Part shown: positions 5,556 to 64,000 of the stretch, piece after piece
How the letters are laid out: each line of letters begins with the position of its first letter
Numbering within the stretch: position 1 is the first letter of the stretch
Origin: an uncultured Chloroflexia bacterium
Lineage (GTDB): Bacteria > Chloroflexota > Anaerolineae > Anaerolineales > E44-bin32
Direction of reading: 5' to 3'
DNA length: 64,000 nt
Assembly (NCBI GenBank): GCA_963789825.1
Contig: CAWBME010000006.1
Span: 974,612-1,038,611, forward strand
The notes under the pieces: generated by a model
The model's input: the letters and a program-made list of their open reading frames with translations, nothing else
What the model was told of the DNA's origin: nothing
Database searches by the model: none
Position numbers and translations under genes: made by a program

Positions 5556-6155
5556 ATGATCACGGTGACCGAGTCGGCCAGGCAGAAGATCTTCGAGCTG
5601 CAGCAATCGCGCGGCCTGACCGATGCGCTGCTGCGCGTCGGGATCCGTGGCCGCGGCCCGAATGGTTTCCTATACACACTGGCCTTCGCCACCCCGGATG
5701 CCGAGCAGCCCGACGACACACGCATCGTCCTCGATGGCGTCACGGTGCTCGTGGACGCCGAGAGCATGGACTATCTGCAGGGCGCCAGCGTCGACTTTGT
5801 CGACACGCCCGACGAGTCCGGCTTTCGCGTCGACAACCCCAACCCGTTGTGGCGAGACCCGGCCTCGCTTGCGGTGCAGGCGGTCATCGACGCCAAACTC
5901 AATCCCGCTCTGGCGTCCCACGGCGGATTCGTGCAGCTCCTACAGGTCGACCGAGATACGGCCTACGTCGCCCTGGGAGGCGGATGCCAGGGCTGCGGCA
6001 TGGTCGACGTGACGCTCAAGCAGGGGATCGAGGTCATGATCCGCCAGGAGGTTCCGGCGATTGAGCATGTCGTCGATACGACGGACCATGCCGGTGGAAC
6101 CAACCCGTACTACCGGCCGTCGAAGGGCGGCCAATCGCCGTTGGCCAAGAGCTGA
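5556..6155 (+). CDS. NfuA-like Fe-S cluster carrier (degenerate HesB/IscA domain + Nfu C-terminal CxxC domain)
   Basis: ORF 5487..6155. The ATG at 5556 follows GGAGG. The N-terminal A-type-carrier-like fold starts MITVTESARQKI, and the C-terminal region reads HGGFVQLL...LGGGCQGCGMVDVTLK. Confidence 0.8.
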   Translation: MITVTESARQKIFELQQSRGLTDALLRVGIRGRGPNGFLYTLAFATPDAEQPDDTRIVLDGVTVLVDAESMDYLQGASVDFVDTPDESGFRVDNPNPLWRDPASLAVQAVIDAKLNPALASHGGFVQLLQVDRDTAYVALGGGCQGCGMVDVTLKQGIEVMIRQEVPAIEHVVDTTDHAGGTNPYYRPSKGGQSPLAKS

Positions 6156-6409
6156 ACCGAAACCCAAGGAGCCTGCGCCAACCGGGCCGGGCCGAAGTCG
6201 ACTTTCGCTCGTCGAGCGGGCGTGATAGAAACCTGGTGTTGCCTGACCCGAGTCCGAACCTCCTCGGTGGTGATTGACTCTCAGGCACCCGATCCCGCTG
6301 TCTCCGCAGGGCGCTTCCGCCCCACAGGGCAGTCCTGACGATTCGGCATGACCGCCCCTCTCGATCCGGCCCTCCCAGGAGCAGGCACTCGAGCGCCTGA
6401 GAACTCAGC

Positions 6410-7711
6410 ATGCAACATCTAGGCAGGCAACAGCGCAAGGTCGTCGACCTGTATCGGGAGTTTCCCAAGCCGTTCTGGACGCTGGTCGGGGCCACGTTCG
6501 TCGACCGGCTTGGCGGCGCACTGCTCTTCCCCTTCTTCGCCCTGTACTTGACCGACCGCTTCCAGATCGGTATGTCCGAGGTCGGCGTGCTGTTCGCCAT
6601 CTGGTCATTGGCGGCATTCCCTGGCAGCCTGCTGGGCGGAGCCCTGGCCGACCGCATGGGCCGCAAGTACCTGCTGATCTTCAGCCTGCTGGCCAGCTCC
6701 CTGAGCACACTGGCCATGGGGTTCGTGAGCTCACTGCAGGCCTTCTACCTGCTGGCGTTGGTGTCGGGGGTGTTCACCGAGGTCGGGGGCCCGGCCTACA
6801 ACGCCATGGTCGCCGACCTGCTTCCGGAACGTCAGCGGGCCCAGGGCTATGGGATCCTCCGCGTGGCCTTCAACGTGTCGGTCGTGCTCGGGCCGGCGAT
6901 CGGCGGATTGCTGGCCGCTCGTTCCTACCTGTTGCTGTTTGTCATCGATGCTGTGATCAGCGCCGGCGTGGCGCTGTTCGTCTGGTTGGCCATGCCGGAA
7001 ACCCGCCCCGCGCCCCACCCGGACGCCAAGCCCGAGAGCGTTGGCCAGACCTTCGCCGGCTACCTGGTCCCGCTGCGCGATCGGGTCTTCCTGCTGTTCC
7101 TGCTCGCCGGCATGCTGGCATGGTTCGTCTACATGAATATGAACACCACGCTGGGGGTCTACCTGCGCGACGACCACGGCATCGCCGAGAACCTCTACGG
7201 CTTGATCCTCAGTCTGAATGCCATCATGGTGGTCTTCCTGCAATTCCCCATCACCCGCTGGATCGCGCCCTACCGTCCGATGCGGGTGATTGCGGCGGGG
7301 ACGGCGCTGTACGCCGTCGGCTTCGCCATGTATGGCGTCACTTCCACCTACGTCATGTTCCTACTGGCGATGGTCGTAATCACTGTCGGCGAGATGGTGA
7401 TCGCGCCGGTCTACCAGGCGATGGTCGCCGATCTCTCCCCGGAGGCAATGCGCGGGCGCTACATGGCGGTCTCCGGCTTCGCCATCGGCATCCCGTATGC
7501 GATCGGGCCATTGATTGCCGGCAACATCATGGACAACCACGACAGCCGATTGCTCTGGTACTTGTGCGGCGTGGTCGGGATGATCTCGGTGCTGGTCTAC
7601 CTGTATCTGGATCGGTTGGTGCACCCAGCCCCCCGCCCGGCCGAGGCCGGGCTGGCCGCCGACCCCCCAGCGTCCACCCCCGGCTCGATGGATCAGGAGG
7701 CCGTCCGATGA
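6410..7711 (+). CDS. MFS transporter
   Basis: 433-aa ORF with ~12 predicted hydrophobic helices and the MFS loop motif GALADRMGRKY. Confidence 0.8.
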   Translation: MQHLGRQQRKVVDLYREFPKPFWTLVGATFVDRLGGALLFPFFALYLTDRFQIGMSEVGVLFAIWSLAAFPGSLLGGALADRMGRKYLLIFSLLASSLSTLAMGFVSSLQAFYLLALVSGVFTEVGGPAYNAMVADLLPERQRAQGYGILRVAFNVSVVLGPAIGGLLAARSYLLLFVIDAVISAGVALFVWLAMPETRPAPHPDAKPESVGQTFAGYLVPLRDRVFLLFLLAGMLAWFVYMNMNTTLGVYLRDDHGIAENLYGLILSLNAIMVVFLQFPITRWIAPYRPMRVIAAGTALYAVGFAMYGVTSTYVMFLLAMVVITVGEMVIAPVYQAMVADLSPEAMRGRYMAVSGFAIGIPYAIGPLIAGNIMDNHDSRLLWYLCGVVGMISVLVYLYLDRLVHPAPRPAEAGLAADPPASTPGSMDQEAVR

Positions 7712-8514
7712 GTCTGATGCGCAGAGTCGACGAGGCACGCAAGGGTTACGCCACCGGGGACGAGGCGCTCACGGCGCACGCCCATGCGCCCGATCGAATC
7801 GCACAGGCAGCCCGCGAGGAGCATGGCGGCGCCGCTCAGCAGTACCTCGGCGACATGGTGTACGGCGGCCTGGACGGGATCATCACCACGTTCGCCGTTG
7901 TCAGCGGCGTCGCCGGGGCCCAGTTGGGAAGCGACATCGTCCTGGTGCTCGGCCTGGCGAACCTGCTGGCAGACGGCTTCTCGATGGCGATCGGCGCCTA
8001 CCTATCCTCCAAGAGCGACCAGGAGTACTATGATCGCGAGCGTGAACGCGAACGCTGGGAGGTCGAGCACTATCCGGAAGGCGAGAAGGCCGAGTTGCTC
8101 GAGGTGTATCGCAACCGAGGCTACGATTCTGCCGATGCCTCCGCCCTGGTCGAAATCCATTCCCGCCACCCGGATCGTTGGGTCGAGACGATGATGTTCG
8201 ACGAATTGGGCATGGTCAAGGACGAGCGCAAGCCGACGCGCAGCGCCCTGGCAACCTTCGTCGCTTTCCTCATCGCCGGGTCGGTGCCTTTGCTGGTATT
8301 CCTGATCGGCCTGGTTGTGCCGATCCCAGCCCAGACGGCCTTCTGGGTATCGCTGGTTCTCTCGGGCGTCGCCCTGTTCCTGCTGGGTGCGGCCAAGGTG
8401 CTGGTGACGCAGCGCAGCCTGCTGCGCAGCGGCATGGAGACGCTGCTCGTGGGAGGCCTGGCAGCCGGAGTGGCGTATGGGGTTGGGGCGCTGCTCAGGG
8501 GCCTGGTCGGCTGA
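7708..8514 (+). CDS. VIT1/CCC1-family iron/manganese transporter
   Basis: The start ATG 7708 overlaps the MFS stop (ATGA). Family motifs are present: YGGLDGIITTFAVVSG, NLLADGFSMAIGAYLS, and an acidic EYYDRERERERWE helix. Confidence 0.8.
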   Translation: MSLMRRVDEARKGYATGDEALTAHAHAPDRIAQAAREEHGGAAQQYLGDMVYGGLDGIITTFAVVSGVAGAQLGSDIVLVLGLANLLADGFSMAIGAYLSSKSDQEYYDRERERERWEVEHYPEGEKAELLEVYRNRGYDSADASALVEIHSRHPDRWVETMMFDELGMVKDERKPTRSALATFVAFLIAGSVPLLVFLIGLVVPIPAQTAFWVSLVLSGVALFLLGAAKVLVTQRSLLRSGMETLLVGGLAAGVAYGVGALLRGLVG

Positions 8515-8614
8515 CTCCGGCGCGGCGCGACCGGGAATCGCGGCCGCCGCACAGCCTGAGGAGGTTTCTCAAGACGATCGGTCGCCCAATCCGGCGGACC
8601 CGGAGGAGAGAGAG

Positions 8615-9130
8615 ATGGACCAACGTCAACGCACGGGGCTCGCCGGGGGGATCCTACTGATCGTGCTCGGCGCCTGCTTGCTGCTCGTCCGCATGTCGCC
8701 CGACTTCCAGGCGCTGCTTCCGCAGAACCTTGGCTGGCCGCTCATCCTGGTCGGCGTCGGCGCACTGCTGCTCGTGATCGGCCTGATCAGCGGCAACGCG
8801 GCGATGGCGGTGCCGGCGTGCATCGTCGCCGGGATCGGACTGATCCTGAACTACCAGGTGGCCACCGGCGATTGGGGCAGCTGGCTGTACCTGTGGGCCC
8901 TGATCCCGTTCTTCGCCGGGCTGGGGACCGTCCTGGCCGGCATCCTGGGGATGAATCCCCACCCGGTCCATTCCCGACGGGCTTTGGACGATGGTGGTCA
9001 GCCTGGCGCTGTTCCTGGTTTTCTCTTCGATCTTCGGCGGCCCAGTGCCGGCCGGCCCCTACTGGCCGGCGCTGCTCATCGCCCTGGGCCTGGCGGAACT
9101 GATCCGCAACATCTTCCGCGCCGGGAGTGA
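8615..9130 (+). CDS. Polytopic membrane protein (DUF5668/LiaF-N-like), apparently frameshifted twice
   Basis: ATG 8615 follows GGAGGAG. The native-looking hydrophobic sequence moves from the 8477 frame to the 8991 frame (MVVSLALFLVFSSIFGG...LIRNIFRAG) near 8970. The stop TGA 9128..9130 overlaps the next gene's GTG (GTGA). Confidence 0.45.
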   Translation: MDQRQRTGLAGGILLIVLGACLLLVRMSPDFQALLPQNLGWPLILVGVGALLLVIGLISGNAAMAVPACIVAGIGLILNYQVATGDWGSWLYLWALIPFFAGLGTVLAGILGMNPHPVHSRRALDDGGQPGAVPGFLFDLRRPSAGRPLLAGAAHRPGPGGTDPQHLPRRE

Positions 9131-9734
9131 GCGCGGCCGCCTTGCGACGGAGCGCTGTGTACTGGGGGATCGGGCTGATCGGCCTGGGCCTCCTGCTGCT
9201 GCTCGACAGTCTGGGCCTCCTGCCTTTCGATCTGAGCGGACTGGTCATCCCCATCCTCCTGATCCTTGCCGGGATCTGGGTCATTTGGGGACTCTCCGGC
9301 GCCAGGCGCAGCGCAGGCGCGACCGTGCTGCGGGCGCCACTGGAAGAGGCCTCGTCCTCGAGCTGGATCTCCGCCACATGGGGGGACGCCTGAGACTGGA
9401 TGGCTCGAGCACCGAGCCAGATGTGCTCACGGCTCAGTTCGCCGCCGCCGCGCGCCATGAGTTGGTGCGCAGCGGCGGGACGCTCAAGCTGAGCCTGCGC
9501 CCGGCAGACGACTGGGCGTTCCTCGCCGCGCCCTGGGCCTGGCAGCCAGGCGATCCGCCGCACTGGGCCGTGCATGTCCCAACGACGGTTCCCGTTTCCG
9601 CGGCGGTCCAGCTCCGTCGGTTGATTCGAGAAGAACTCCGAGGCATGGCCGGGCATGGTCCGAGCGCTGTTCGACAGCCGGCGCATGGATCACACGGAGG
9701 ATCGAGATGCACAAGTCGCGGCCACAGATCCTGA
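9127..9734 (+). pseudogene. LiaF-like protein (TM N-terminus + beta-rich C-terminal domain), fragmented by frameshifts; 3' end uncertain
   Basis: ORF 9127..9393 gives the TM part (YWGIGLIGLGLLLLLDSLGLLPFDLSGLVIPILLILAGIWVIWG). The continuation LELDLRHMGGRLRLDGSSTEPDVLTAQF...TLKLSLRP lies in the 8991..9734 frame. Confidence 0.35.
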
Positions 9735-58358: not shown

Positions 58359-58520
58359 TCCTTCCTGAAGGTAGCATGGTAGTTCTGTCTGGATGTCGAA
58401 CAAACGGCCTGGGCGGAAACTGCTCGGGCCGGCTTGGTTCTTCCAGCACTTCCCGAAGAACCCGACCAGCCCAGGGAACGAACAGGCACCTATCCTCTTG
58501 TTGCCTAGGGAGGCAATGTC

Positions 58521-58730
58521 ATGTCTGGACGGATTCAGGGTACGGTCAAGTGGTTCAACAGCGGGAAGGGCTACGGCTTCATCTCGCGCGAGGGCGGGGA
58601 CGATGTGTTCGTTCATTTCTCCGCCATCCAGGGCGACGGCTATCGCGAGCTGCAGGAAGGCCAGCGAGTCGAGTTCGCCATCGCCCAGGGCCCGAAGGGC
58701 CTGCAGGCTGAGGCTGTCACCGTCCTCTAG
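58521..58730 (+). CDS. cspA: Cold-shock protein (CspA family)
   Basis: RNP1/RNP2 motifs are present: [24 protein letters not shown]. Confidence 0.95.
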
Positions 58731-58753
58731 TCGGACGGGATGGATGAAGCACG

Positions 58754-58787
58754 AAGCCCCCGGGCATGTCCCGGGGGCTTTTCGATT
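58754..58787 (+). terminator. Intrinsic terminator after cspA
   Basis: AAGCCCCCGGG-CATGT-CCCGGGGGCTT followed by TTCGATT. Confidence 0.75.
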
Positions 58788-59319: not shown

Positions 59320-59325
59320 AAGGTC

Positions 59326-59342
59326 TGCTGGTCTGACCAGCA
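59326..59342. promoter_or_regulatory. Perfect 17-bp palindrome, candidate GntR-type operator
   Basis: TGCTGGTC-T-GACCAGCA has 8+1+8 perfect dyad symmetry. It starts 7 nt after the -10 and ends 14 nt before ATG 59356. Its half-site TGGTC/GACCA fits the GT-Nx-AC rule for GntR-family operators. Confidence 0.5.
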
Positions 59343-59355
59343 TACCAGAGGGCGC

Positions 59356-61018
59356 ATGCAGATTGAGCAGATCGATCACCTGAGGCTTGGCCGAGCAGGT
59401 CGCGGGGCGGCTGGCGGCGTCCATCCTGGATGGTGGCTTGCAGGCCGGCGAGCAGCTCCCTGCCGAGCGCGACCTGATGACCCGTTTCGGCGTCAGCCGG
59501 GCCACGCTGCGCGAGGCGCTGCGCATGTTGGCCGAGCACGAACTGCTCGCGGCCCGCCCCGGCGTCGGCTGGTTCGTGCGCCAACCGGGGAAGCGGGTGC
59601 TGCCTTCGGTGATGGCGCTGGCGCAGGCCCACCGCCCTACGCTCCTGGCCGACACCCAGCCGGCGCGCCAGCCGCCGCCGGAGGGCCCGCGACGCCTGAC
59701 GGTCGTCGCCGAGAAGCCGCTGCATATCCCTAACCTGCGCACCGACCGCCTGGGCACTTTCGACTTCATCTCCTGGTGGGAACGGGACAAGGTCCAGGCC
59801 GCCCGCGTGCTGGTCGTCGGCGCAGGTGCCCTCGGCAACGAGGTCGTCAAGAGCCTGGCGCTGATGGGCATCGGTCATCTGTTCCTGGTCGACTTCGACA
59901 CGATCGAGGCCGCCAACCTCAGCCGCTCGGTGTTCTTTCGCGAGGCCGACACCGGGAAGGAAAAGGCGGTCGTCGTGGCGGCACGCGCCAAGGCGCTCAA
60001 CCCACAGATCCACGTCCAGCACCTGCAAGGGGACGTCACCACCCGACTGGGGTTGGGCATCGTCCGCCGCATGGACGTGGTCATCGGCTGCCTGGACAAC
60101 CGGGAGGCCCGCCTGGCGCTCAACCGCTTCTGTTACTGGATGGGCAAGCCGATGGTCGATGGCGCCATCCAGGAGCTGCTCGGCCTGGTGCGAGTGTTCG
60201 TCCCCGGACAGGGCGCCTGCTTCGAATGCACCCTGACCGAGCAGGCGCGCCGCGAGATCTCGCTGCGCTACTCCTGCCCGCTGCTCGCCCGTCACAACAT
60301 TCTGCAGGGCAAGGTGCCCACCACCCCGACCATCGCTTCGATCATCGGCTCGATGCAGGCCCAGGAAGCGCTCAAGCTGATTCACGCCATGCCGGTCGAG
60401 GCCGGCAAGGTGACCCATTTCAACGGCCTGACCAATGCGATGCACACCACCGCCTATGTGGCGCGGGAGGACTGCGAAAGCCACTGGACCTATGGGGAAG
60501 TGATCGAACTCGCCGCTCGTGCCGACAACACTCGGGTGCGGGACCTGCTCGAGGTCGCCCAGCGGGACCTCGGTCCGGAAGCGGTGATCGAACTCGACCA
60601 CGAACTGCTCCTTCGGCTGAGCTGCCCGCTCTGCCAGACCGTCGAGGAGGTCATCCGCCCGCTGTCCGAGGTGAGCTTCGAAGCCGGCCACTGCCCGTCC
60701 TGCGGGGTTCTGCGAGAGACCGACATGACGCACCTGCTCACCGGGCGGGAAGGCTTCCTCGATCGCACGCTGTCCAGCATCGGCGTCCCGCCGCTGCACA
60801 TCTTGCGCGCCCACAATGGCCGCGAGTACCGCTTCTACGAACTGACCGGCGACCTGGCGCAAGCGCTGCACTTCTCCGATTTCGAAGGACCCCCACCAGC
60901 CAGCAGCGATCCGCTCTCCGGCCAGCGCGTCCGGCTCGGGCCGGAGGTCGGAGAGACACCTGCTCCGGGCAGCCCGGCGCGTGGGCGGATCGTCGTCCAC
61001 CAATCGGAGGCGCAGTGA
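59356..61018 (+). CDS. E1-like Ubl-activating enzyme (ThiF/UBA fold) with an N-terminal GntR-type wHTH and C-terminal C4 zinc ribbon
   Basis: ORF 59387..61018. The wHTH is LPAERDLMTRFGVSRATLREALRMLAEHELLAARPGVGWFV. The Rossmann region is VLVVGAGALGNEV...LVDFDTIEAANLSRSVFF. ACFEC is followed by YSCP (Cys at 60275..60277), positioned like the catalytic Cys of UBA-type E1s. The zinc ribbon CPLC...CPSC lies at 60623..60703. The probable true start ATG 59356 (MQIEQIDHLRL) is one base out of frame (extra G ~59389). Confidence 0.8.
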
Positions 61019-61932
61019 CCATCTCGCTCACCCCGCCTCCTGCTCCACCGCCGCTGCGCCGCTCGCCGCGCCTGCCGCGCTGGCTGGGGATCATCTTTCC
61101 CCTGGTGGTACTGACTGCGCTCGGGATGACGTATGCCGCCGCCGTCAACCGCACGCTGCACCCGGCTGCTGTCCAGGCCGGCGGGGCGGCGGCGCTCGGC
61201 CTGGCCGCCGGCGCGCTGACGCGCAGGAGCGCCGCCGGCCGGCCGCTCGCCACGCAATGGTGGATCGCCGAGGCGGCGGCCACTCTCGGACTGCTGTTGG
61301 CCGGGCTGCTTTCCGGCGGCCGCAGCGGCATCGCCGCGCCGCTGGTCGGCGGCTCTGCGGCGCGCCTGGCAGACCTGGCCTGGCTGGCGCTTGCCGGGCT
61401 CGGCGCGTGGCTCGCGCTCCGCTACCACCGGCCGCGCCCGATGCGCCCGCCCCGACGGACGCTGCGGCAGCGGATCCATTCCTCCCAAGACGGCTGGCGA
61501 ATCCGCCTGCAGCGCCTGTCGCCCGCCCGCCTCTGGCGCCGCCATCGGCTGGGGCCGATGCACACCCGTCCGCGCCTCCCCACTGCCGCGGCCGCCGCCA
61601 CTGCACAGTCAGCTCCCCGGCATGCGCCCACCAGCCGCACCAGGCCGTCCCCCAAGGTCAAGCCCGCCAAAGCCCGCCGCCTGACCACCGCTCGCGCCTC
61701 CCGGCGCGCACCGAGGCGGATCGCACAGCGCCCCATTCGCTTCACCGGCAGGGAAGAATCGCGCTGCCCATACTGTCTGGAACGGGTATCCCCAAATGAC
61801 CCACGCGGATCCAGAGTCTGCCCGGTCTGCCACACTCGCCACCATGCGGACTGCTGGGCTGTAACCGGAGTCTGCCAGATGCCGCATCTGTACGTGGACG
61901 CCTCCGCCGGACGACAAGGAGCGAACCGATGA
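61015..61932 (+). CDS. 4-TM membrane protein with a C-terminal RING-like (treble-clef) zinc finger; candidate E3
   Basis: This is the 3' part of ORF 59776..61932. GTG 61015 overlaps the E1 stop (GTGA) after GGAGG. Four hydrophobic helices and an Arg/Pro-rich linker are followed by CPYC-x14-CPVC-HTRHHADC-x6-C (61765..61875). Confidence 0.65.
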   Translation: MTISLTPPPAPPPLRRSPRLPRWLGIIFPLVVLTALGMTYAAAVNRTLHPAAVQAGGAAALGLAAGALTRRSAAGRPLATQWWIAEAAATLGLLLAGLLSGGRSGIAAPLVGGSAARLADLAWLALAGLGAWLALRYHRPRPMRPPRRTLRQRIHSSQDGWRIRLQRLSPARLWRRHRLGPMHTRPRLPTAAAAATAQSAPRHAPTSRTRPSPKVKPAKARRLTTARASRRAPRRIAQRPIRFTGREESRCPYCLERVSPNDPRGSRVCPVCHTRHHADCWAVTGVCQMPHLYVDASAGRQGANR

Positions 61933-62777
61933 CCGACCTGGCCGTGACGATAGTCCTTCCCAACGGCGGCGCGCGCACGGCGGAGATGCCGGACGAGGTC
62001 AGCGTGCGTGATCTGCTGGCCGAGCTGACCTCGCTGCTCAAGCTCCCTACCCTCGGGCCGGATGGCCGGGCGATGGGCTACCGCATCGACAGCAAGGCGC
62101 TCGGCCGCGAGCTGCGCGAGGACGAGACGCTGGCCCAGGCTGGCGTTCCCGCCAACGACCGGCTGATCCTGACCGCCGACATCACCGCTGGCGCCAATCC
62201 AGTCGAGCAGTCACCGCGTCAGCGCCGGCTGCGCGGCGACCACGAGCGCATGGTCGAGTTGGCGGCGCGCAGCGATGTGATTCGCTTCGAGGCCCGGCCG
62301 GAGCATCCCGGCTGGGCGCCCGAGCGCTATGTCCTGACGTTTCGCTGCAAAGGCATCGCCAGCGTCGATCGGCAGGGCCGGCCCAAGTTCTCCGAACATC
62401 ATCAGGTGGAGATCTACCTGCACAGCCAATACCCGCAACGCTGGCCAGGGATGAAATGGCTGACGCCGATCTGGCATCCCAACATCAACCATCTCAATGG
62501 AAGCGTGTGTATCGACGCCGCCTGGTGGACGGCCGGTCGCTCGCTCGACCGGCTGGTGATCATGCTGGGCGAGATGATCCAGTACAAGAACTTCCACGAT
62601 GACCCGAAGCAGCCTCCCTTTCCGTGGGACGTCGAGGCTGCGCGCTGGTGCCGGGAGTATCGCCGCCGGCACCCCGATGCCTTCCCTGTCGATCGCCGTG
62701 AACTGCTGCGGCCCGAACGCGTCAAGCTCGCCGGTCAGCCGGCGGCCAAGGCGCGCCCACGCGTCCGCCTGAAGTAG
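61929..62777 (+). CDS. Ubl-E2 fusion: N-terminal beta-grasp Ubl (aa 1-88, ends ITAG) + UBC-fold E2 with HPN motif and catalytic Cys
   Basis: ATG 61929 overlaps the previous stop (ATGA). The E2 core is YPQRWPGMKWLTPIWHPNINHLNGSVCID (HPN 62475..62483, Cys 62508..62510). The N-terminal 85 aa are ~70% identical to the free Ubl at 62824..63120. Confidence 0.8.
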   Translation: MTDLAVTIVLPNGGARTAEMPDEVSVRDLLAELTSLLKLPTLGPDGRAMGYRIDSKALGRELREDETLAQAGVPANDRLILTADITAGANPVEQSPRQRRLRGDHERMVELAARSDVIRFEARPEHPGWAPERYVLTFRCKGIASVDRQGRPKFSEHHQVEIYLHSQYPQRWPGMKWLTPIWHPNINHLNGSVCIDAAWWTAGRSLDRLVIMLGEMIQYKNFHDDPKQPPFPWDVEAARWCREYRRRHPDAFPVDRRELLRPERVKLAGQPAAKARPRVRLK

Positions 62778-62823: not shown

Positions 62824-63120
62824 ATGACCGACAACGTGAAAGAGGAAACCCGGGCAGCGGAACTCTCGGTGACGATTGTGCTCCCCTCCGGGGGAAGCCG
62901 GACGGCGGACGTGCCGCGTGAGGTGCCGGTGCGCGAGTTGATCCCCGAGCTCACCACATCGCTCGGCTTGCCGACGACCGGGCCCGACGGACGACCGACC
63001 AGCTACCGCTTGGACAGCAAGGCCCTCGGTCGCGAGCTGCGCGAGGAAGAGACGCTGGCCTCGGCCGGCGTCCCAGAAGGCGACCGCCTGATCGTGACCG
63101 CCGACGTGACCGCCGGCTGA
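62824..63120 (+). CDS. Free ubiquitin-like (beta-grasp) protein ending ...VTAG-stop
   Basis: A 98-aa ORF after AGGAGG. It has an alternating beta/alpha pattern (VTIVLPSGGSRTADVPREVPVRELIPELTTSLGLP...YRLDSKALGRELREEETLASAGVPEGDRLIVTADVTAG) and an exposed C-terminal Gly. Confidence 0.75.
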   Translation: MTDNVKEETRAAELSVTIVLPSGGSRTADVPREVPVRELIPELTTSLGLPTTGPDGRPTSYRLDSKALGRELREEETLASAGVPEGDRLIVTADVTAG

Positions 63121-63137: not shown

Positions 63138-63168
63138 CCCCGCCCGGCGGCATGCGCCCCGGGCGGGG
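63138..63168 (+). other. GC-rich hairpin between the Ubl and JAB genes, 3' arm abutting the JAB Shine-Dalgarno
   Basis: CCCCGCCCGG (63138..63147) pairs perfectly with CCGGGCGGGG (63159..63168). The sequence GGGGAGG that follows and overlaps it is the only RBS for ATG 63182. No U-tract follows. Confidence 0.5.
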
Positions 63169-63181
63169 AGGCCAGGTGGAT

Positions 63182-63844
63182 ATGATCTCGGACTCGACAC
63201 GCATTCGGATCGGCGCCAGGGAAGCCATCCAAGCCGCGCCCGGGCACATGCCGGTGCAGCAGGCGCTCCACTGGCTCTCGGCGTACGACAGCCCTCGCCC
63301 GGCGGAGGGAATGCGCGTGTTCATGACGCCCTCGGCCTACGTTCGCTGCTGCGCGCATGCTGGCAGCGATCTGGTGCACGAGGTCGGCGGGGCGCTCGTC
63401 GGCCGGTGGCGGGTGGATGCCGCCACGCGCCAGCCCTACCAGGTGATCGAGGCGGTCCTGCCGGCGCGCCACACCCGCCACGGCCCTGCCTACCTGACCT
63501 TCACCCAGGACAGCCTGGTGGCATTGAACGATGATCTCGAGGAGCGTTTCCCCGGCCGGCTGATGCTCGGCTGGTATCACACCCACCCGCGGATGGGGGT
63601 CTTTCTCTCCGGGCAGGATCTCTGGATCCACGAGCACTTCTTCCCCGAGCCCTGGCAGGTGGCGCTGGTGATCGAGCCGGTGACGCGCGCCGGCGGGTTC
63701 TTCGTGCGGGACAAGGCAGGTCGCCTCGACCCACACGCCTACACCGGCTTCCACGAGCTGCTGCGCGACGGACGCGGCAGCCTGATGGTGTGGACCAATC
63801 TCAGCCAAGAGGTAGTGGCAGTCGAGGAAGGAGTATCTGGATGA
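63182..63844 (+). CDS. JAB/MPN+ (JAMM) metalloisopeptidase
   Basis: ORF 63152..63844, start ATG 63182. It has a Glu in HEVGGALVG and the JAMM motif HTHPRMGVFLSGQD (63578..63619). Confidence 0.85.
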   Translation: MISDSTRIRIGAREAIQAAPGHMPVQQALHWLSAYDSPRPAEGMRVFMTPSAYVRCCAHAGSDLVHEVGGALVGRWRVDAATRQPYQVIEAVLPARHTRHGPAYLTFTQDSLVALNDDLEERFPGRLMLGWYHTHPRMGVFLSGQDLWIHEHFFPEPWQVALVIEPVTRAGGFFVRDKAGRLDPHAYTGFHELLRDGRGSLMVWTNLSQEVVAVEEGVSG

Positions 63845-64000
63845 GCCGGTCGATGCGCACGTATTACTACGCCGTGGCAGGCGCCATGGGTGGGCTGATC
63901 GCCTGGCAGGTCAGCAACTTGATCGGGCTGTCGTTCTCGGCCAATCTGTACCTCAACGAAGTCGTCGTCGGTGGCCTGATCGGCCTGTGCATCGGACTGC
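63841..64000 (+). CDS. Membrane protein, 5' fragment (continues beyond the window), translationally coupled to JAB
   Basis: ATG 63841 overlaps the JAB stop (ATGA). Translation: MSRSMRTYYYAVAGAMGGLIAWQVSNLIGLSFSANLYLNEVVVGGLIGLCIGL, with at least two hydrophobic helices. Confidence 0.5.
   Translation, partial: MSRSMRTYYYAVAGAMGGLIAWQVSNLIGLSFSANLYLNEVVVGGLIGLCIGL

Follow-up and report, generated by a model that had tools for sequence, protein, structure and literature searches.

A membrane-anchored Prok-RING_1 finger protein, candidate E3 of an Anaerolineae ubiquitin-like conjugation operon

A 64,000-nucleotide stretch of DNA from an uncultured Chloroflexia bacterium (contig CAWBME010000006.1, positions 974,612 to 1,038,611; hereafter the window) carries near its end a compact operon for conjugation of a ubiquitin-like protein (Ubl). 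Between the genes for the activating enzyme (E1) and the Ubl-fused conjugating enzyme (E2) lies a gene whose product, here called the TM-finger protein, joins transmembrane (TM) helices to a C-terminal, putatively zinc-binding finger. An earlier note, made from the sequence alone, had proposed it as a membrane-embedded ligase (E3) with a cytosolic RING-like finger. Our analysis supports this proposal: the protein very probably serves this Ubl system as its dedicated, membrane-anchored Prok-RING_1 finger. That it acts as an E3 is fairly likely, and we find it about equally plausible that a self-contained Anaerolineae Ubl-conjugation module has this protein as its dedicated third component, be it E3 or adaptor. 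The proposal is, however, a rediscovery, as the TM-anchored prokaryotic RING finger was predicted computationally in 2011 to be the E3 of bacterial Ubl operons, according to passages of the later literature that recount this work.

The finger: ligands, family and predicted fold

All six cysteines of the TM-finger protein fall inside one 37-residue stretch, in the pattern CPYC(251-254)-x14-CPVC(269-272)-H273-x2-HH(276-277)-x2-C280-x6-C287, which the translation places at 61765..61875, exactly where the earlier note had put it. Ligand conservation was judged on alignments of 25, 38 and 93 sequences and on a list of finger sequences. Eight ligands are invariant (C251, C254, C269, C272, H277 or H276, C280, C287 and H291), spaced as C-x2-C-x14-C-x2-C-x4-H-x2-C-x6-C-x3-H, and a regular expression for them is present in 120 of 120 homologs. 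Their order is of the C4HC3 type with a His as the last ligand (C4HC2H). The ligand count first proposed needs amending: the cysteines and the HH pair stand, H273 varies among homologs (H/R/N/G/K) and is therefore not a ligand, and the eighth ligand, H291, had been overlooked. Across the 93 TM-finger sequences, 20 columns are invariant. Invariant hydrophobic residues of the finger are Y253, W281 and P290, which we take, as a lead only, to be loosely analogous in position to the E2-contact residues of canonical RINGs.

Prok-RING_1 (PF14446) is the sole Pfam family that the homologs match consistently, with matches for 25/25 full-length homologs (E<=0.01) and 38/38 finger-only homologs (E<=1) and a best E value of 4.1e-11. 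Many database homologs already carry the PF14446 label, and NCBI gives one of them the name 'RING finger protein'. Among other families, Cas12f1-like_TNB matches 23/38 members, weakly (best E 0.0074) and more than PHD does; zinc-ribbon families give weak, inconsistent matches. The finger is a RING/PHD-superfamily binuclear finger of prokaryotic RING family 1, presumably with zinc as its metal. A passage of PMC4029887 that cites Burroughs et al. 2011 describes this family as 'characterized by a transmembrane domain', and a 2024 review (PMC11354881) gives the configuration of prokaryotic RING domains as C4HC3.

In an AlphaFold2 model of the finger alone, the mean predicted local distance difference test score (pLDDT) is 79.6, with 88-93 in the core; the finger reaches 88-91 in the full-length model. 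C269xxC272 sits in the turn of a beta-hairpin, which leads directly into a helix starting at H277-A-D-C280 (HADCWAV), and this modelled layout is that of a treble clef (knuckle-hairpin-helix). Taken with the eight ligands and the Prok-RING_1 matches, it bears out the claim that the finger is binuclear, treble-clef and RING-like. Cross-brace pairing of the zinc ligands is favoured over sequential pairing, because the modelled finger resembles cross-brace folds and fits the sequentially paired Rcat poorly. The finger sequence profile, compared with the PDB, gave weak matches to HOIL-1 RING2, to the TRIM5 and TRIM21 RINGs and to ribosomal zinc ribbons. An RBR Rcat/RING2 domain of the HOIL-1 type (profile match E 0.0017) was ruled out by TM 0.21 in structure comparison and by the lack of a conserved Cys between C254 and C269.

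Several features weigh against a RING-type E3. The window sequence stays under the PF14446 gathering cut-off of 29.1 bits, scoring 23.8 bits at full length (E 4.4e-5) and 25.7 bits for the finger alone (E 1.1e-5), and the Prok-RING_1 family is known from computational description only. The ligand order C4-H-C-C-H, in which four residues separate ligands 4 and 5, is not that of canonical C3HC4 or C3H2C3 RINGs; the spacing is PHD-like, C4HC3 instead of C3HC4. PHD (PF00628), second only to Prok-RING_1 among Pfam families with a cross-brace (PHD/RING-type) fold, matches 12/38 members (best E 9.8e-4, all below threshold), against 2/38 for zf-RING_2 (E 0.085). Foldseek comparison of the finger model with the PDB returned no significant match (best E 0.07). 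Its top matches are mostly PHD fingers (Pygo, MLL, DIO-1 and TAF3; probability 0.6-0.8, E>=0.07), which rank above the RING E3s; some RING domains do occur among the matches (TRAF3, EL5, Arkadia and RNF38). Finally, canonical RINGs have a basic 'linchpin' residue after the last ligand, and no conserved residue of this kind was found among the homolog finger sequences. PHD fingers are readers of peptides.

The earlier note had also raised the possibility of a simple zinc ribbon. A mononuclear ribbon is ruled out by the eight invariant ligands and by the helix that bears ligands 5 and 6; PHD and RING fingers lead the fold matches, none of which is significant.

Gene, membrane anchor and conservation

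The TM-finger gene (Table 1) starts with a GTG at 61015 that shares the tetranucleotide GTGA with the E1 stop, and its own stop, TGA 61930-61932, shares ATGA with the start codon of the Ubl-E2 gene; both overlaps are read from the sequence. Translational coupling to E1 and E2 is real, since the gene overlaps the E1 stop and the E2 start and has a GGAGG before its GTG. The overlaps themselves had been pointed out before.

Table 1 Features of the operon (window positions unless a locus is named)
Feature	Position	Strand	Details and basis
Imperfect palindrome, core TGGTCTGACCA (59329-59339)	59322..59346	.	Candidate operator; 48 nucleotides upstream of E1 start
E1: N-terminal GntR helix-turn-helix (HTH), ThiF adenylation domain, C-terminal extension	59387..61018	+	Pfam GntR E 5.6e-21, ThiF E 7.7e-55
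GGAGG ribosome-binding site (Shine-Dalgarno)	61006..61010	+	4 nucleotides 5' of TM-finger GTG; read from sequence
TM-finger gene	61015..61932	+	305 amino acids; between E1 and Ubl-E2 genes
Four TM helices, residues 22-44, 50-72, 78-99, 114-136	61078..61422	+	Kyte-Doolittle scan; AlphaFold2
Two basic membrane-adjacent helices, residues 150-167 and 170-179	61462..61551	+	AlphaFold2 pLDDT about 90
Arg/Pro/Ala-rich disordered tether, residues about 180-245	61552..61749	+	AlphaFold2 pLDDT <50
Prok-RING_1 binuclear finger, residues 246-292	61750..61890	+	Pfam, invariant columns, AlphaFold2
Ubl-E2 fusion: YukD-like Ubl ending TADITAG, linker, UBC domain with HPN...C194	61929..62777	+	Pfam YukD, UQ_con; alignment
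Free YukD-like Ubl, C-terminal ...TADVTAG	62824..63120	+	Pfam YukD E 7e-14
JAB/JAMM isopeptidase, intact HTHPRMGVFLSGQD motif (HxHx7SxxD)	63152..63844	+	Pfam JAB E 7.8e-8; translation
Polytopic membrane FHA gene, start only (53 codons)	63841..64000	+	Runs past window end; translation, synteny
Tail motif sites	60925-61015 (E1), 62709-62774 (E2); L001 11830-11935 (VWA)		Loci L001-L084

The gene is real and in frame. Among 252 TM-finger homologs, one is a 99%-identical, 305-residue protein from an independent assembly. GC content at third codon positions (GC3) is 0.73-0.93 from the start through the linker, and differences from the 76%-identical ortholog in locus L005 at codon positions 1/2/3 number 17/10/44 (TM part), 31/18/46 (linker) and 2/3/22 (finger). 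As third-position changes dominate, the linker is in frame, and an out-of-frame or artefactual linker, which the earlier note had set down as a risk, was rejected on GC3, codon-position differences and homolog architecture. The 22 third-position changes against five amino-acid changes indicate strong purifying selection on the finger. These results also dispose of the most sceptical explanation, namely that the protein ends in an ordinary mononuclear zinc ribbon or that the whole open reading frame is a high-GC artefact with an out-of-frame linker. The weak matches to zinc-ribbon families and ribosomal zinc ribbons, and a frame that stays open far upstream of the start in a region of 70% GC, are what speaks for it; they are outweighed by eight ligands instead of four, a helix after the second knuckle, a Prok-RING_1 match in all homologs tested that no other family equals, codon periodicity and GC3, the near-identical protein elsewhere, and a C-terminal finger among the listed members of the 548 database representatives described below. 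We regard this explanation as refuted by the ligand, family and codon evidence and leave it next to no probability.

A Kyte-Doolittle scan found four hydrophobic segments in the TM-finger protein, and the corresponding helices H22-44, H50-72, H78-99 and H114-136 have pLDDT values of 88-97 in an AlphaFold2 model built on the 93-sequence alignment. Family-wide, the N-terminal flank, the TM2-TM3 loop and the segment after TM4 together hold on average 6.4 K+R per protein, against 1.55 in the other two loops. This excess on the inside segments predicts an N-in/C-in topology, that of a four-pass inner-membrane protein whose finger is cytoplasmic. R70 and G105 of the membrane domain are invariant in the same alignment, and G62 and G66 nearly so. 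Foldseek comparison of the full-length model with the PDB identified no specific relatives of the TM domain, returning generic helical membrane proteins only (E>=0.8). The linker, residues 141-245, holds 27 Arg and 14 Pro among its 105 residues, and the tether ends in a strand, PIRFTG (residues 241-246). In homologs of 26-80% identity, the linker ranges from 59 to 269 residues in length (median 115) and is basic in all cases, with 21% K+R and 6.5% D+E. Hence, both the four TM helices of the earlier note, now backed by the scan, the model and the positive-inside distribution, and its Arg/Pro-rich linker of about 110 residues have held up.

Genomic context ties the protein to this Ubl system. 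A scan of one genome per species found a relative in 192 genomes; taxonomy was taken from the best 80 of the 192, all of which are Chloroflexota, mostly Anaerolineales with one member of the Ardenticatenales. Around three distant homologs the gene order is GntR-ThiF E1, TM-Prok-RING_1, YukD-UQ_con, YukD, JAB, Yop-YscD_cpl/FHA and VWA. When 84 related Chloroflexota loci were searched by tblastn, all seven genes were present wherever the contig reaches, and their order was the same in all loci but one, L054. In this locus (5902-9731) the finger gene lies immediately upstream of E1, with the candidate operator described below between them. That it still adjoins the operon after rearrangement counts in favour of a dedicated component. 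Across loci, identity to the window proteins is 58-96% for E1, E2 and Ubl and 27-76% for the whole finger protein, whose most conserved part, the finger itself, is nearly invariant. A search of 1.84 billion cluster representatives with the finger profile gave 375 matches at E<=1e-10 and 548 at E<=0.001; in every match listed the finger stands at the very C-terminal end of the protein, which in most cases has 250-360 residues. Conservation in orthologous operons, on which the earlier note had made its proposal depend, is thus complete: the finger is kept in every one.

Operon partners and role of the finger protein

The enzymes encoded around the TM-finger gene look active. The E2 carries HPNINHLNGSVC with Cys194 in the alignment, the Ubl ends in Gly, and the catalytic motif of the JAB peptidase is intact. 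The ...TADVTAG C-terminus of the free Ubl is identical in nearly all loci. The two Ubl copies, one fused (61929-62195) and one free (62824-63120), are paralogs with 69% identity. The presence of TADITAG followed by a linker suggests that the fused Ubl is either released by the JAB peptidase or kept tethered and non-cleaved. The GntR-ThiF fusion of the E1 also occurs in L001, L002 and L004; its GntR-type winged-helix DNA-binding domain (window 59387-59580) is kept in distant orthologs. An E1 that doubles as a transcription factor is unusual.

Downstream, the translation of 63841..64000 aligns with the N-terminus of the FHA protein of L001, and the start of this gene overlaps the JAB stop. In L001, 9928-11938 is the continuation of the operon, with the FHA gene followed by the VWA gene, and a VWA gene would be expected at the same place beyond the window. 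The FHA protein combines a long hydrophobic stretch at its N-terminus with an FHA domain (Yop-YscD_cpl/FHA) at its C-terminus. In the VWA protein, a signal or anchor at the N-terminus precedes the VWA domain, which is followed by a C-terminal TM helix and a short, basic cytosolic tail.

We propose the following mechanism. The GntR-E1 would adenylate the Gly-terminated YukD-like Ubl and hand it to the E2, which is of the canonical HPN/Cys kind. The E2 is produced in fusion with a Ubl, and JAB could trim this fusion; release of a fused Ubl by JAB is how Kaur et al. interpret related systems in a passage of PMC7159879. The membrane-tethered finger, on its basic tether of roughly 100 residues, would then recruit or activate the Ubl-charged E2 on the cytoplasmic side of the membrane. 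This would direct conjugation to membrane-proximal targets, the obvious candidates being the cytosolic tails of the FHA and VWA proteins encoded in the same operon, and the JAB peptidase would reverse the modification. As the FHA and VWA partners are predicted membrane proteins too, conjugation at the membrane would fit the operon's content.

In a different assignment of roles, the TM-finger protein would be a target or regulator of the pathway, either through modification of its basic tether or through a redox- or metal-sensing finger, and the E2 would work without an E3. Bacterial Bil E1 and E2 do conjugate without an E3, according to the part of PMC10557695 that treats them, and the linker evolves fast, the TM-finger protein being 27-76% identical across loci against 67-96% for E2. 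The window linker is nevertheless rich in Arg (27 residues) and poor in Lys and would therefore be a poor acceptor for conjugation, and the finger, which is better conserved than the rest of the protein, shows strict linkage to a canonical E2. We consider a target or regulator very unlikely.

A second feature of the operon bears on what the finger may do. The E1, Ubl-E2 and VWA proteins share a C-terminal motif, a pentapeptide of alternating basic and hydrophobic residues ('RIKLK' type), usually with a second copy 15-25 residues upstream. Typical endings, each directly before the stop, are ...KKPRIKLK for E2, ...KKPRIKLK(D) for VWA and ...GRIRLRD for E1, with RPERVKLAGQPAAKARPRVRLK as an example of a tail peptide; the window Ubl-E2 tail reads RPERVKL...RPRVRLK. 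A strict regular expression matches 35/83 E1, 47/79 E2 and 41/59 VWA tails, against 0.1-0.3 expected from shuffles, and essentially no JAB, FHA or finger proteins across the loci. The E1 and E2 tails of L054 are extended and hold several extra copies. The motif could serve to dock either the finger or the acidic Ubl.

Peptide binding by beta-strand addition is known from PHD fingers. The TM-finger protein could be a PHD-like peptide reader and scaffold that docks the 'RIKLK' tails of E1, E2 and VWA and so brings the cascade together at the membrane, with no allosteric E3 catalysis. Such a role would agree with PHD being ahead of RING in fold and profile matches, with the PHD-type ligand spacing, with the presence of the motif on nearly all E1, E2 and VWA proteins and its absence from the JAB, FHA and finger proteins, with its multiplication in L054 and with a related strand, [IV][RKQ][FL]xG, four residues before the finger. 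The tails could equally well be read by the acidic Ubl (as with a SUMO-interacting motif, SIM), by the membrane or by a factor encoded outside the operon, and scaffold and E3 roles are compatible with each other. A scaffold without E3 catalysis is in our view rather unlikely, if the most serious competitor of a membrane-anchored E3.

Upstream of E1 lies an imperfect palindrome (Table 1). Its exact core (TGGTCNGACCA) is found within 150 nucleotides upstream of E1 in 58/69 related loci, the others having one-mismatch variants, and 847 kb of sequence contain 60 matches against about 0.8 expected. The palindrome is probably the operator of the GntR HTH fused to E1, and its conservation upstream of an E1 with such a domain suggests that the operon is autoregulated by the HTH of its own E1. 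The tail motif and the operator may be new features. Combining both, one can picture the module as a self-regulated transmembrane Ubl signalling pathway, in which an extracytoplasmic VWA sensor would form a membrane complex with the FHA and TM-finger proteins, the finger or the acidic Ubl would read the 'RIKLK' tails and so assemble the cascade on the cytosolic tail of VWA, and the HTH of E1 would bind TGGTCNGACCA, coupling the state of the pathway to transcription of the operon. We hold this extended scheme to be quite unlikely; if true, it would involve recruitment by the finger through a linear-motif code, which is undescribed for RING E3s.

The genes flanking the operon in the window are, by eye, housekeeping genes, encoding an S-adenosylmethionine synthetase, an HtrA-like protease and a cold-shock protein. 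A match to the Rfam cspA thermoregulator at 58428-58784, below threshold (56.6 bits against a gathering value of 78), overlaps the cold-shock gene (58521-58730), and 3' of this gene a perfect GC-rich hairpin (58754-58780) looks like a terminator.

Comparison with known systems

Bacterial E1-E2-RING-Ubl-deubiquitinase cascades, here with JAB as the deubiquitinase, bear on the origin of the eukaryotic ubiquitin system, and we know of no RING-containing cascade that has been reconstituted from bacteria. The core idea of the present operon is already in the literature and in Pfam, to judge from the passages of these sources that treat such operons; the system remains a good experimental target. 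The Anaerolineae module is unusually tractable, being compact and strictly syntenic with a highly conserved E2 and Ubl, and the genome collection labels related loci as Anaerolinea thermophila, a species with a cultivated strain. Whether the finger proves to be a true E3 or a motif-reading scaffold, the outcome would test the 2011 prediction and whether membrane-localised Ubl conjugation predates eukaryotes.

Bil and Bub defence operons and type II CBASS with Cap2/Cap3 share with the window operon the bacterial E1, E2, Ubl and JAB-type logic. Unlike it, they have no RING or TM-finger protein, and the window operon differs from typical defence genes in its housekeeping flanks and very conserved enzymes. 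Searches with PADLOC models gave no match for the finger protein, E2 or Ubl and weak generic matches only for E1 and JAB, and a known defence system of these types was rejected because the former three have no model match. NCBIfam likewise provides no name for any of the finger protein, E2 and Ubl.

Among individual finger folds, PHD fingers resemble the window finger in the C4-H-C order, in the four residues between ligands 4 and 5 and in a hairpin with the second knuckle followed by a helix starting with H-x2-C. The window finger differs from them in its last loop of 6 residues (12-46 in PHD), its last ligand, a His, its sub-threshold scores and its setting in a Ubl operon, not a chromatin context. 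Eukaryotic membrane RING E3s (MARCH and Doa10 with RING-CH, and Hrd1) are likewise polytopic and offer a cytosolic finger of the RING superfamily to a soluble E2. RING-CH domains are C4HC3. The window protein carries its finger at the C-terminus, on a long tether that is basic and disordered, and relatedness lies at the level of the RING/PHD superfamily. The earlier analogy with endoplasmic reticulum-associated E3s, drawn in logic and not in homology, therefore holds as drawn, with kinship at superfamily level only.

The Caldiarchaeum subterraneum operon (Hennell James et al. 2017, PMC5654768) is, like that of the window, a compact E1-E2-RING-Ubl-JAMM cascade, and no other prokaryotic E1/E2/RING cascade is known to have been reconstituted biochemically (PMC5654768). 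Its RING is small and soluble and its ubiquitin close to the eukaryotic one (PMC5654768). In the window system, by contrast, the finger is carried on four TM helices, the last two residues of the YukD-like Ubl are Ala-Gly and the E2 carries a fused Ubl.

Burroughs, Iyer and Aravind (2011, Mol Biosyst 7:2261) reportedly proposed that YukD-like Ubls are conjugated by systems of the present kind. Bacterial 'tri-ligase' Ubl operons with PF14446 are like the window in finger family and TM helices, as a passage of PMC4029887 describes them, and their partners, E1, Ubl-E2 fusion, Ubl and JAB, are again those of the window in the description given in part of PMC7159879. The window finger departs from the PF14446 kind in scoring just below the cut-off and in its last ligand, a His (C4HC2H). 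In addition, the Anaerolineae module has two further membrane proteins, one with an FHA and one with a VWA domain, and a GntR HTH fused to its E1, whereas the context described in 2020, in the corresponding passage of PMC7159879, is one of MoxR, FtsH and EAD1.

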